Positions 3,961-25,895 of a stretch of 64,000 nucleotides of DNA are shown here, one piece after another (positions within the stretch are counted from its first letter, which is position 1; the number at the start of each line of letters is the position of its first letter). The DNA is from Octopus vulgaris. Lineage: Eukaryota. A program made the translations under genes and the position numbers. Location: NCBI GenBank assembly GCA_951406725.2, contig OX597820.1:45322001-45386000 (forward strand), read 5' to 3'. The notes under the pieces are model-generated. The model was not told the DNA's origin and did no database searches. It saw nothing but the letters and a program-made list of their open reading frames with translations.

Positions 3961-4166
3961 AATGTGACCTCGTGTGTACCGTTGGCGATTTTTTTTTCTC
4001 TGTCTTCCCTTCTCTGGATCTTTCCTTCTCCTATGTTTCCGACGAAGAGCTCCGCTCGAAACGTTAAACCCTCCTTCTTTCTTTCTTTCCTGAGCGTCCA
4101 ATAATACTATATTTGTTCCACGTCCTCGCGTTGTGTTTTTTTGTGCTTTCTTGTTTGGATTAACTT
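3961..4166 (+). mobile_element. Short about 200-bp hammerhead-bearing repeat inserted in the internal TA tract of a SINE
   Basis: Related copies at about 7101-7337, 7385-7570 and a 3' half at 25125-25227 share the ttcctgagcg...taatac segment, and the three longer copies also share gctcgaaacgtt. Confidence 0.65.
4035..4069 (+). ncRNA. Degenerate minimal hammerhead-like motif (GAAACGTT type)
   Basis: GTTT-CCGACGA-A-GAGC(tcc)GCTC-GAAA-CGTT-AAAC; one core change (CCGA for CTGA). Confidence 0.55.
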
Positions 4167-4997
4167 TATATATATGTGTGTGTGTTTGTCCCCTACCATC
4201 GCTTGACAACCGATGTTGGCGTGTTTACGTCCCCGTCCCGTAACTTAGCAGTTCGGCAAAAGAGACCGATTGAATAAGTACTAGGCTTAAAAGGAATAAA
4301 TCCTGGGGTTGATTTCTTCGACTAAAGGCGGTGCTCCAGCATGGCCGCAATCAAATGACTGAAACAAGTAAAAGAATATTATTTCCTTCACGTTTAGGAT
4401 ACATTATAATATTATTAACTACCCCCAACACTCCAGTATACTTAATCTCATCGAGCTCAGAAAGAAAAAAGCAAAGTTGACCGCGGCTGGATTTGGACAG
4501 AGATAGAGAGCCCTAACTGAATACCATTCAACATTTTACCCAATTTTCTAACAACTTTTATAATACACTTGAAGTACATTCTGAGTCTTGTAGGTTTGTA
4601 GTTTCGTGTGGATGATGTTTTATAACCAGGATAGAGCTGAAGGTAGCGGTGAAAGTCAATAAGGGTGACGAGAAGGGTATAAACAGGTTGGATAAGTGGG
4701 TACAATCGGAAAGGATATGCTGTTAAATAATTTCAAGAAGGATTCTATAGACTCATGCACTCTATAAAATATATGTTTCAGAACTGATTGTTCTGATTTT
4801 TTTTCTTTTTTTGAGTAGCTTTGTTATTTAAACAAACGTATAAGAATAGGAATAAAAAATTATTCATAGATTTTCGGAAACAGCTTAAAATTATATAAAA
4901 ATTTTCTCTAAAACATCAACTAATCACTTGAAAATATTGACTCAGTCTATAAATGCCGTCATGAAATTTCCTAGATATTTCAAAATATTCTATTCTA

Positions 4998-5420
4998 CTG
5001 AAGGCACAAGGCTCGAAATTTTTGGGGAGGGGTCCAGCCGATTAGATCGACCCCAGTACGCAACTGGTACTTAATTTATCGACCCCGAAAGGATGAAAGG
5101 TAAAGTCGACCTCGGCGGAATTTGAATTCAGAACGTGAAGATAGACGAAACACCGCTAAGCATTTCGCCCGGCGTGCTAACGTTTCTATTTCTTTACTAC
5201 CCACAAGGGGCTACACATAGAGGGGACAAACAAGGATAGACAAACGGATTAAGTCGATTACATCGACCCCAGTGCGTAACTGGTACTTAATTTATCGACC
5301 CATGAAGGATGAAAGGCATAGTCGACCTCGGCGGAATTTGAACTCAGAACGTAGCGGCAGACGAAATACCGCTAAGCATTTCGCCCGGCGTGCTAGCGTT
5401 TCGGCCAGCTCGCCGCCTTA
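4998..5420 (-). mobile_element. Two nested/tandem copies of SINE family B with different 3' tails
   Basis: Shared core gagttcaaattccgccgaggtcgactttgcctttcatcctttcggggtcgataaattaagtaccag (MetaSINE-like central domain, from recall). Confidence 0.9.
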
Positions 5421-6294
5421 GATATTTCAAAATATTAAAAGTACATTCACGTCGTAATTTTACAGTTGTTGCCTATAACGGTTGGTATTGGTTACTCACT
5501 GTTTCGAATCATTGCTGCGTGGGTAAGAAGCTCACTTTGCAACCATGTGGTTTCGCATTCAGTCCTACTACGCGGCACCTTGGACAAGTGTCTTCTACTC
5601 TAGCCCCCAGACTATCGAATGCTTTGTGAGTGTATTTGACAGACGGAAACTGTGTGGAAGCCCATCGGATACATAATTCATGCAAACATATATATATGTA
5701 TGTATCTGTGTCTGTTCTCGCCCATCCCTTGATAACCGGTGTCGGTTTACTTACGTCGCCGTAACTAGCGATTCGGCAAAAGAGACCGACAGAATAAGTA
5801 ATAAGATTTAAAATAAGTTCTGGGGTTCATTTGTTCGACTAAATCACATCATGGTCGCATTCCAGTGCTTGAAAAGTGTAAAAGACAAAAAATAATAAAT
5901 ATAAATAACTAAAACAATATTTGATCCCTCCTTCCGCAGACGAAACGTTTGAATCGCTTAAGGTGGATCGATTTTAAATATACATCACGTAATTACTTTT
6001 CGGTCTTTACACATCGATGCATAAACCAAATAATTTTATAAATGTTTCGAGTCTGAAAGACACTGACGCTACGTAATATAACGAACCTCTCTCTATAACG
6101 ACCATGATAAAATGCATAAAAGCGCTTATAATGAGAAAAAATATCAAACTACAATTATTTAGGACTGGGAAATATTGTATGTTCGGATAAGAATATAAAA
6201 ATGTCATTTGCTAATGAGAATATACCAAAAAATTTTCTGTGTCTTTCTATAAAAAACATTTTCACATAGAATTAAACATATTCTTTAATGGTTT

Positions 6295-6720
6295 TGATCG
6301 GATTGGGTGGGAGAGGACAGTACCCACGGTCTTCGCCGAAAATCCGTGACTAGTGAGATCGACGGAGCAATATTTTATTGCCTTTATTTAAGTTATAAAT
6401 GGCGGCTACAGGAAAGAAAAAAAAACATGTGCAGGGTGGGAATTTCAAAGAGCTAAAAGTCTTGGGAAAGAAATAGTCTAGCGCGGCGCCTAAGGGCGTG
6501 GAGGCGAGTGACGAGAGAAGACAAAAACGAATGAGTCGGATGGATTCGAGTGAAGGCGAGTCGAGATTAAACAGCTCGAGATTAAACAGAGACGTTGCTG
6601 AAGCAACGATACAAAAGATAGAGCACGTTTTGTGGACTAGAGTTTAGTGCCTGTAGGTCAACGTTACCGGTGGATGAGCAGACCTATGACTACAACCGCT
6701 CCAACTGTAACCATCCAGTT
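6295..6720. promoter_or_regulatory. Candidate promoter / first-exon region
   Basis: Locally CpG-rich, non-repetitive island with ATTGG (6302), TATAAA directly before AAATGGCGGC (YY1-like, 6397-6406), GGGAATTTC and GGGCGTGG motifs. Confidence 0.3.
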
Positions 6721-23257: not shown

Positions 23258-23895
23258 TCAAAAACTAGCACTATGACCCTTTTGGATGCACTTGGCCCGG
23301 CGGTCCACAAGCTTGCGTATTCCCTTCAAGAAGAAGGTTTTCGGTTGGTCGTGCAGCCATTTATGCACCGCTTCTTTCACATCTTCATCCGTAGGAAATC
23401 GACGACATCGCAAACCATCTTTGAGCGGCCCCAAAAATTGATTGTCGGAAGGGGCGAGATCTGGGGTGTAGGCAGGATATTCTAGCCCTTCAAAACCCAA
23501 TCGGGTAATGGTTTCAACCGTCTGGGTGGTCGTGTGTGGGCGTGCATTGTCATGCAACAACAAAACTTTCTTCGACAATACGCTTCGGTGTTTGATGCGA
23601 ATTGCTGGCTTCTGTTTGTTGGCCAGCAAAGCAATGTATCTTGCACTGTTGATCATACACCCCTTTTCCAGAGAAATCGGATCGCCCCACTTTGTTTTTA
23701 TATTCTTACACATTGCAAGTGGAGCGGCCATGCATACAAGGTAAAGCCAGAAAGAGAAATGGTGTGATCAGGCTCAAACTTTGATCAAGTAACCACAATA
23801 GTACCAACTGTAACCAGGCATGCGCAGAAGGCAGTGTGACAATAATAAAGATATGTTATGGCGAAAATGCGGATAATTTTTGACTTCCCTTTGTA
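23258..23895 (-). mobile_element. Internally deleted mariner (DD34D)
   Basis: LLHDNARPH, YPAYTPDLAPSD motifs; TIR-like TAcaagggaagtcaaaaattatccgca (minus) at about 23869-23895. Confidence 0.85.
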
Positions 23896-23937
23896 AATTT
23901 CCTCAGCCAATCACTGTCTGACTACTGCTGATATATA

Positions 23938-24843
23938 TTAGGTTGAGGAAAACGTTCGTGCGCCGTGTTAAAATAATGATTTTTTATGCAGGAATTTATT
24001 CAAAAACAACTATTCTTCAAAATAAAGACCATAGTTTCCCACGACATTCTGCCAACGATCTGCTAGCTTTCGGATTTGGTCAAAGCACCAATCCTTCCGC
24101 TTTGAATCGAAAAATTCTTGACAGGCTTCTTCAACTTCATCGAATGTCTCAAACCAGCGACCTTTCATAAAGTGCTGCATTGATTGGAAGAAACCATGGT
24201 CAGATGGTGCAACGTCTGGACTATAGGCTGGATGCGGCAGAACTTCCACAACGTCCAATTCTTCAATCTTGTTGCTGGTCTTTCTTATTTATTATTTCTT
24301 TATTGCCCACAAGGTGCTAAACACAGAGGGGATAAACAAGGACAGACAAACGGATTAAATCGATTACATCGACCCCAGTGCGTAACTGGTACTTAATTTA
24401 TCGACCCCGAAAGGATGAAAGGCAAAGTCGACCTCGGCGGAATTTGAACTCACAACGTAACGCAGACGAAATACCGCTAAGCATTTCGCCCGGCGTGCTA
24501 ACGTTTCCGCCAGCTCTCCACCTTATTTATTATTATTTTTTTTTTGGAGCAACGTGAAATGAAGTGTTTTGCTCAAGAACACAACGCGTCGTCCGGTCCA
24601 GGAATCGAAACCACAATCTTACGATCATGATGCTGACACACTAACCACTAAGCCACGCGCCTCCACAGTTGCTGGTCTTTCTGGTAGTATGCGGCTTTGC
24701 ATTGTCTTGTTGGGACAAAGCGCGTTTTCGACGAACACAGTGAATCACAATTGAACATGACATGAACTGAATGAACACACACCACAAAAATATATAAAAA
24801 AGCATTATTTTAACACGGCGCACGAACTTTTTCCTCAACCTAA
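23938..24843 (-). mobile_element. Non-autonomous mariner with both TIRs, interrupted by a composite SINE
   Basis: About 45-bp TIRs ttaggttgaggaaaa.gttcgtgcgccgtgttaaaataatg with TA flanks; QDNAKPH and HPAYSPDVAPSD motifs. Confidence 0.9.
24286..24667 (-). mobile_element. Composite SINE (family C tRNA head plus family B) bounded by a 15-bp TSD
   Basis: gttgctggtctttct at 24271-24285 and 24668-24682. Confidence 0.8.
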
Positions 24844-25895
24844 TATTACCTTTCACTTGTTTCAGTCATTTGACTGCAATCATGGTTGGGTACTGCTCTG
24901 AAAGGTTTTAGTGGAACGAATTAATTCCAGTACTTATTTTTAAGCCTAGTACTTATTCTATCGGCACCGGTTGTCAATCTGAAGTGGGACACACACACAC
25001 ACACACACACACACACACACACACACACACACACACACACACACACACACACACACACACACACACACACACACACACACACATATATATATATATATAT
25101 ATATATATATATATATAAATATATAAGACTTGTTTTATTTATATTCCTGAGCGCCATACTAATACAATTGTTTGTTTGTACTCCACCTGCCTTCGTCTTT
25201 TGTTTATTTTCATAAAGCTTCCCGTTATATATATATATACACACTCACAACAGACTTCTTTCAGTTTCCGTCTCAAAAGGTTCTTGTCGGCTCGAAGCTA
25301 TAGTAGAAGACACTTGGCCGAAGTGTCACGTGGTGGGACTGAACCCTGAACCATGTGGTTGGAAAGCAAACTTCGTACCACATAGCCACACATATATACG
25401 TATACACACACACACAAGCACACACGCACGTACGTCCATAGATACACACACATACACACACACACAAACACACACACACATATATATACATACATGTATA
25501 GTTACACATACGCACAGATTCATAGACGCGTGCGCACATATACACAGTTTTATAATTTGAAAGAATCGTAACAAATTAAGATACCATTATTCAACATTTC
25601 ATATATTAAGTTAGTTTACGAAAAGCCTGATAATAAGGAAACACTATGCATCTATTTATTTTATCTTTTTATCTATTTACTTCTTTAAGTCTTTTGACTG
25701 TAGCCAGGCTGGGGCACCGCCTTGAAGATTTCTAGGCAAACGAATTGACCTAGTACTTGTTTTGTTAAACTTGGTACTTATTCTATCGATCTCTTGTGCC
25801 GAACCGCTATGTTACGGGGACATAAGCACACCAACACCAGTTGTCAAGCGTTGGTGGGGTAAAATACAAACAGAAACACACACAATACACACACT

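Follow-up and report, generated by a model that had tools for sequence, protein, structure and literature searches.

Hammerhead-bearing repeats of Octopus vulgaris are truncated ends of (TA)n-targeting Penelope-like elements, and cleavage does not set their insertion 5' ends

A 64,000-nt stretch of the Octopus vulgaris genome (assembly GCA_951406725.2, contig OX597820.1, positions 45,322,001 to 45,386,000; hereafter the window) contains four copies of a repeat of about 200 bp built around a minimal hammerhead ribozyme motif. These repeats are 5'-truncated 3' ends, that is, solo pseudo-long terminal repeats (pLTRs), of (TA)n-targeting Penelope-like elements (PLEs). Copies 2 and 4 are assigned to a young tandem element of 4.48 kb whose predicted 1071-aa frame, of Neptune type by its motifs, joins a reverse transcriptase (RT) to a GIY-YIG endonuclease (EN). 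According to the overall reading, to which we assign a probability of roughly 70%, an RT and GIY-YIG protein would insert PLE ends into (TA)n by target-primed reverse transcription. Synthesis would begin about 105 nt downstream of the hammerhead, the complementary DNA (cDNA) would be copied through an uncut or re-joined ribozyme, and most short copies would end close to a likely transcription start, some 110 nt 5' of the cut, joining there by TA microhomology. A first-pass annotation of this DNA had proposed that the mobilised RNA owes its 5' end to ribozyme cleavage; as the main route, this is refuted. Positions with a sign are counted from the predicted cut, and comparisons with published systems refer to the accessible portions of the papers cited.

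The members of the family in the window, with their shared block and hosts, are the following.

3960..4167, + strand: copy 1, solo pLTR of lineage A, U4C subfamily, starting about 105 nt 5' of the predicted cut
4035..4069, + strand: copy 1 hammerhead, minimal type I, with core CCGACGA (U4C), extra A, stem II GAGC/GCUC and helix III ACGU; predicted cut after 4065
7104..7339, + strand: copy 2, solo pLTR of lineage B (A6U), starting about 100 nt 5' of the cut
7171..7208, + strand: copy 2 hammerhead, minimal type I, core CTGTTGA (A6U); predicted cut after 7203
7385..7570, + strand: copy 3, decayed solo pLTR of a sister subfamily, with a broken core (CCCAAAA) and with stem II and GAAACGT retained
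25125..25227, + strand: copy 4, the 3' 103 nt of a lineage B pLTR, truncated at the second base past the predicted cut
4089..4098, 7227-7236, 7491-7500 and 25146-25155, + strand: downstream block CCTGAGCG, common to all four copies and able to pair with the stem II 3' strand
3743..4370, + strand: host SINE (short interspersed nuclear element) of copy 1, which lies inside its internal microsatellite
24855..25389, - strand: host SINE of copy 4, which lies inside its internal microsatellite

The parent element was reached through long copies found by their 3' anchor. Upstream of the pLTR these carry a low-complexity 3' untranslated region (UTR) and then a GIY-YIG frame, which bears out the suggested link to Penelope minimal hammerheads. 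A search with the GIY-YIG domain gave 150 of 150 scored matches at 99-100% identity, many in open frames of more than 1,000 codons. In 20 fetched loci the repeat unit measures 4,477 bp and stands in tandem or partial tandem. The 1071-aa open reading frame (ORF) of one locus, L094, matches RVT_1 (E 1.8e-07, above the cut-off) and weakly GIY-YIG (E 0.006, below the cut-off), and 549 relatives carry the same Pfam sets. Its protein contains DKG (KPADKGG), a CX4CxxC linker (CSRPRCRTC), two cysteines within GIY-YIG, and YCISCSLCHSLYIGQTG.

Copies 2 and 4 are, respectively, 93% and 96% identical to both pLTRs of L094. Copy 1 is 88-90% identical to the long lineage A copies L295 and L271, and copy 3 is 76-83% identical to L004, L007, L013 and L302; the predicted cut of copy 3 follows 7470. 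For lineage A, RT/EN remnants 54-62% identical to the lineage B protein lie upstream of the pLTR within L291 and L295; an intact lineage A element with its tandem junction was not found, and the internal TA run described below is thus seen for lineage B only.

A single ORF with RT and GIY-YIG, tandem or partial-tandem pLTRs and frequent 5' truncation mark the family as an EN-containing (EN+) PLE. The CX2-5CxxC linker before a C-terminal EN with CCHH, together with the DKG motif, points on protein motifs to Neptune or Nematis. The octopus family resembles the Neptune and Nematis elements of Craig et al. 2021 (PMC8557442) in its single ORF with RT followed by C-terminal GIY-YIG, DKG, CX2-5CxxC linker and GIY-YIG cysteines, as well as in its partial tandems, strong 5' truncation and microsatellite targets; elements carrying this linker are known to target (TA)n. 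It differs in that most loci have no inverted 5' copy and that no 30-40 bp tail was seen, short copies not having been searched systematically. The descriptions in the same paper exclude Hydra (DKT, no CCHH), Naiad (N-terminal EN) and Poseidon (no linker), and the octopus rows in the accessible part of its supplement are Naiad and Hydra, not the present family.

The 3' ends are nearly uniform. A common 3' end motif lies about 105 nt past the cut in 85 of 87 sampled lineage B copies, with TATATA adjoining it in 82, and 39 of 40 long copies terminate at unit position 108-110. At tandem junctions the unit runs on past this end point as TTATATATTATGC / TTATATAT into the 5' UTR. There is a good chance, in our estimation, that a nicked (TA)n pairs with the UUAUAUAU lying past the 3' end point, within the next unit, and so primes reverse transcription. 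Since such priming lies downstream of the ribozyme, the template must be uncut or re-joined where the cDNA crosses the cut site.

A comparable arrangement is described for the Anolis element Poseidon_Ac (Frangieh et al. 2024, PMC11167929), in which RT initiates internally, 3' of the hammerhead, the target is AT-rich and no RNA reads end at the cut. There the hammerhead needs protein, and catalytic mutants still insert in vitro. Poseidon_Ac differs in starting at two sites, inside the ORF and not homologous to the target, whereas the octopus element has one end point, in the 5' UTR, beside an 8-nt TA run that matches the target.

The 5' ends were sampled from the first anchor matches on one contig, with 96 (lineage B) and 76 (lineage A) of the first 100 listed being fetched. 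Copies were told apart by long context, and the counts refer to 94 lineage B copies after L168, which has an internal deletion, was dropped, and to 76 of lineage A. A few duplicated loci are included (L188/L189, L315/L316), and the standard deviation (SD) and Fisher figures come from an earlier set of 86 copies. No lineage B start falls within 5 nt of the cut and no lineage A start within 3 nt, so that none of the 170 lies within 3 nt; the pile-up at the GUU site that the first-pass annotation had set as its own test is not seen. Across the genome, the three cut-site positions together account for 61 TA junctions; a single control position within loop II has 64, and -109 has 455. By eye, 34 of the 61 fall at the exact first base and 13 each at the next two, and T-A microhomology at the cut can explain the 34. 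An inspection of 29 distinct loci, with four starts at 0 to +2 and four at -15, is consistent with these counts. Copy 4 is one of the 61: its first base, 25125, is base 2 of the 3' product and indeed close to the predicted cleavage point, as had been noticed, and the first A of that product is shared with the TA tract. It is an ordinary truncation at TA microhomology.

The starts gather further upstream, at what we call the wall. Among lineage B copies, 46 of 94 start between -85 and -117 and 17 lie beyond -130; among lineage A copies reaching -85, 51 of 53 stop by -112. The limit is the A of TCATT at -110 in lineage A and near the A of TCAGAT at -111 in lineage B, older lineage B copies having TCAGTT or TCAGTC at this motif. 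Lineage B starts at the wall scatter less when measured by element coordinate (SD 6.4) than when measured by copy length (SD 10.9).

The hammerhead itself departs from the canonical form. With one pattern format for all three cores, the 2.8-Gb assembly holds 18,990 exact CUGUNGA (A6U), 9,316 CCGANGA (U4C) and 5,120 CUGANGA cores. Control patterns gave no genome-wide match (the reversed control against 5,120 for the canonical core), which puts these numbers far above chance. Non-canonical cores therefore make up 85% of exact matches (28,306 of 33,426), more than 5:1 over canonical ones. A6U and U4C are fixed subfamily traits. The earlier annotation had taken them for a different single mutation in each copy and had deduced a CTGANGA consensus; U6 in copy 2 and C4 in copy 1 are instead the majority states of their subfamilies. 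The consensus of both window subfamilies lacks CUGANGA, an outcome named beforehand as a refutation, and the canonical core occurs in the 5,120 relatives elsewhere. All pLTR cores listed in 20 long-ORF loci are CTGTTGA, as are 44 of 45 in 40 further loci; hence, the youngest element carries A6U.

The remaining architecture is that of PLE minimal type I hammerheads: helix I, helix II with G10.1-C11.1, an extra base after A9 and a palindromic minimal helix III, here ACGU (A15.1-C-G-U16.1). The longer AACGTT given for helix III at first is incidental because the base at the cut may be U, A, C or G. Across 84 distinct motifs, stem I is 92% paired. Its pair 4 is G-C in 28, C-G in 26 and G-U in 15, and no other pair has both partners altered in more than a single row; pair 4 does so in 28 of 84 rows, and a second pair in one. 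This switch is essentially one event between the two lineages. Stem II is invariant in the 84, a property that their selection required. The covarying stems claimed initially thus hold for a compensating pair 4 and not beyond: the helices are real, but covariation within the family amounts to one pair.

Between lineages A and B, 20 core and stem II positions are identical at 72% overall identity, although the selection of copies favoured conserved positions, and all four bases occur at N7 among U6-lineage motifs. Such a pattern argues against simple decay and would be as expected under continued selection. A hammerhead with U4C is less active in vitro yet sustains a viroid in vivo, and one with A6C shows low activity that depends on the metal (PMC3088659, PMC7151607). 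Both octopus variants are predicted to slow cutting, and we lean toward a ribozyme that is slow, probably protein-assisted and weakened by A6U and U4C.

The PLE hammerheads of PMC4209133 share with the octopus motif a 4-5 bp helix I, the extra nucleotide between 9 and 10.1, G10.1-C11.1 and the palindromic 15.2-16.2, and they too are mostly single dispersed motifs from truncated PLEs, for which a circle model was proposed. They differ in a helix II of 7-8 bp, against 4 bp in octopus, and in the core variant of the main text, U3-A8, against the dominant A6U and U4C. A6U in PLE hammerheads was not found in the accessible published literature, supplementary alignments aside; the supplements of PMC4209133 and of a bioRxiv preprint (10.64898/2026.07.22.740005) could list core variants.

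Other hammerheads, and losses of the motif, were also met. A second minimal family with the same layout, other stems (GGCTG...CAGCC) and a canonical core occurs at L007:1800 (-), L207:2297 (-) and L279:750 (-), and single canonical-core hammerheads with longer palindromic helix III inserts (CTCGAG, CAATTG) at L360:6309 (+) and L151:83 (+). In L168, L202 and L203 the hammerhead or its 3' half has been lost through short internal deletions.

About 22-31 nt past the cut, the block TTCC(T/C)GAGCG (also given as CCUGAGCG) is constant across subfamily majority lines with differing flanks. It can pair with the stem II 3' strand and G12. Of 14 copies submitted to folding, 11 gave folds and one was mis-anchored; in 5 of the 11 the downstream GAGC beats stem II (P 0.65-0.89). 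The block is a possible off-switch or protein site. Monomer and homodimer folds do not show the catalytic fold and are uninformative on activity.

Long insertions add a further line of evidence. More-than-unit insertions number 27 among the 60 fetched long-ORF loci. All start between -343 and -1480, in an upstream partial copy, and all pass through both the cut site and the wall, none starting at either. The two repeats of one locus differ by a mean of 2.9 changes, against 6.7 between loci, and locus-private substitutions are present in both repeats of L099, L105, L106, L108, L358 and L384. Such shared private variants indicate that one template stretch was probably copied twice, through a circle or a jump. 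Tentatively, at a little under even odds, we attribute the long copies to repeated rounds of copying on one template, for which a unit-length circle joined at the hammerhead is the likeliest form. A template jump or tandem read-through is also conceivable, at odds lower still. The circle is the best fit: if the wall often defeats a jump during the first pass, it should do so in the second as well. Two considerations weigh against the circle: it cannot form at the hammerhead if A6U kills cleavage, CUGA-turn mutants being weak in a deep scan of a type III hammerhead (PMC9901934), and gene conversion could likewise homogenise two repeats. A literature search on template jumps in PLEs returned no paper directly on the subject among the entries listed. 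Across lineage B loci L091-L110 and L351-L390, these long insertions have their 5' ends within the EN region and the low-complexity 3' UTR, and among full-unit copies a single one stops in the interval from -340 to +46.

The most durable alternative, which we place appreciably short of even, treats the hammerhead as a dead or dispensable passenger. Long copies would then be due to read-through of multi-unit arrays or to RT that jumps to the 3' pLTR on reaching the RNA 5' end, and weakening mutations would be advantageous, given that cleavage between the promoter and the site of priming ruins the template. The preponderance of non-canonical cores, the CTGTTGA cores of long-ORF pLTRs, the lower in vitro activity of U4C and position-6 changes (PMC3088659, PMC7151607), the downstream GAGC that out-competes stem II and the insertion of hammerhead mutants in vitro (PMC11167929) all favour this account. 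It is harder to reconcile with the wall, which stops 0 of 27 second passes compared with 36 of 56 (p 2e-9), or with 3 of 9 hand-picked youngest copies (p 0.012). Moreover, of the 60 fetched long loci only 1 is part of an array containing two full units (that array was fetched twice, with overlap), and the private variants imply many source loci. The 20 positions kept between the lineages and the free variation of N7 also run counter to it.

Regarding the wall, the TCA motifs of both lineages resemble the initiator consensus TCAKTY. On this likeness the wall may, at slightly better than even odds, be the RNA 5' end at an initiator-like TCA, the short copies being strong-stop cDNAs or deriving from solo pLTRs that keep an internal promoter. 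Several observations weigh against it. The consensus is short, and the B1 motif TCAGAT matches it imperfectly; a motif resembling the downstream promoter element (DPE) was not seen by eye at +28 to +32. Around the wall, AT/ATG microhomology to (TA)n is plentiful, with the 50 nt downstream pyrimidine-only, weak hairpins (-7.0 and -9.4 kcal/mol per 40 nt) occupy -140 to -90, and some lineage B copies overrun the motif slightly (-112 to -129). Contigs of eight runs (seven guessed to be RNA, one of unknown kind) span pLTR and ORF and give no RNA ends. They show no splice-like joint either. An intron suggested by the pyrimidine tract before AG in the core finds no support.

It is accordingly worth weighing whether the wall is a TA-microhomology hot spot, an RT pause at a hairpin or a fixed-length product of about 215 nt, which we consider unlikely without being negligible. 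Most wall junctions use A, AT or ATG common to the TA flank, and lineages A and B share the same geometry with weak hairpins close by. Yet 96% of lineage A copies reaching -85 stop within 27 nt, at a TCA motif, and the same sequence stops none of the 27 second passes; a fixed-length ruler is weakly disfavoured, as the lineage B wall tracks sequence more than length. The transcription-start reading has a counterpart in Penelope of Drosophila virilis (Schostak et al. 2008, PMC2377424; PMC4209133 is also cited for this), whose transcript starts inside the pLTR upstream of its hammerhead from an internal promoter. The Penelope start is mapped, whereas that of the octopus element is only inferred, and the octopus contigs contain no intron joint.

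An origin of the repeat as an independent non-autonomous family, a retrozyme or SINE rather than a PLE end, is improbable. In its favour, lineage A has more than 11,000 motifs but only 157 copies that, with one mismatch tolerated, extend some 25 nt beyond the wall; as most of the 30 long ones examined have CUGA, solo pLTRs may be the main form in which the U4C subfamily amplifies. For lineage B the idea is refuted by the match of copies 2 and 4 to both pLTRs of ORF-bearing elements. In lineage A, the U4C copy L295 has RT-EN remnants upstream. No short-unit tandem arrays and no fixed cut-to-cut monomer were seen in the copies analysed. Animal non-LTR retrozymes (PMC7229834; bioRxiv 10.64898/2026.07.22.740005) share the type I hammerhead, a PLE connection and a proposed circular template; they are tandem non-coding monomers of 170-400 nt, each with a hammerhead, whereas the octopus repeats are ends of a coding element with a 4.48-kb unit.

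Finally, that cleavage makes the 5' end of the mobilised RNA, with insertions starting at the GUH site, is scarcely credible: the copy 4 start 1 nt from the site and the small local excess of 34 at the exact first base stand against a cut-site count that is about 0.6% of 10,167 anchor matches (the patterns differ in breadth) and is no higher than at the control position with the same TA microhomology, none of 170 sampled starts where 2.7 would be expected if uniform outside the wall, and none of the 27 long insertions.

Within the window, all four copies lie on the + strand where the first-pass annotation had placed them, with their common downstream block, and copies 1 and 4 do sit between SINE head and tail. 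The shared hammerhead layout assigned to copies 1 to 3 holds for copies 1 and 2, the only two window matches to the type I minimal hammerhead descriptor, and fails in the broken core of copy 3. Copy 2 has a 31-bp tandem duplication at 7266-7328. The two-part SINE with its internal microsatellite recurs in at least 10 window places besides 3743-4370 and forms a landing pad for TA-targeting elements. An Rfam scan of the window listed no hammerhead among the best 150 of 309 rows, which microsatellite matches dominate. At 12609-12655, CTGATGAG-GCAA-CGGAAA-TTGC-TGAAAC followed by GTCAG has hammerhead-like core strands that misfit the type I descriptor.

The system as a whole is of an already known kind, a minimal PLE hammerhead in solo pLTRs of Neptune-type PLEs, to which the octopus family adds fixed A6U and U4C cores, a 5' wall and twice-copied ends. 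A more speculative extension, which we consider doubtful, posits two templates for a young element that is still open: a capped RNA that, primed right behind the ribozyme, would yield strong-stop inserts of about 215 nt mapping its start, and a ribozyme-closed 4.5-kb circle that would yield the more-than-unit inserts. The hammerhead would remain under selection although its universally conserved A6 is fixed as U, and the downstream strand would act as an off-switch. If this were true, the circular intermediate long proposed for PLEs would be recorded directly in the genome copies. The role of the hammerhead in PLEs has been stated to be unclear (PMC8557442), and the octopus family answers one idea negatively, as cleavage does not set insertion 5' ends. 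It also offers testable material in the form of a young open-frame element, tens of thousands of junctions, a sharp 5' wall at a candidate start site and natural A6U and U4C variants. Either a variant ribozyme works in the cell, which would extend the hammerhead core rules, or the element thrives without a ribozyme.

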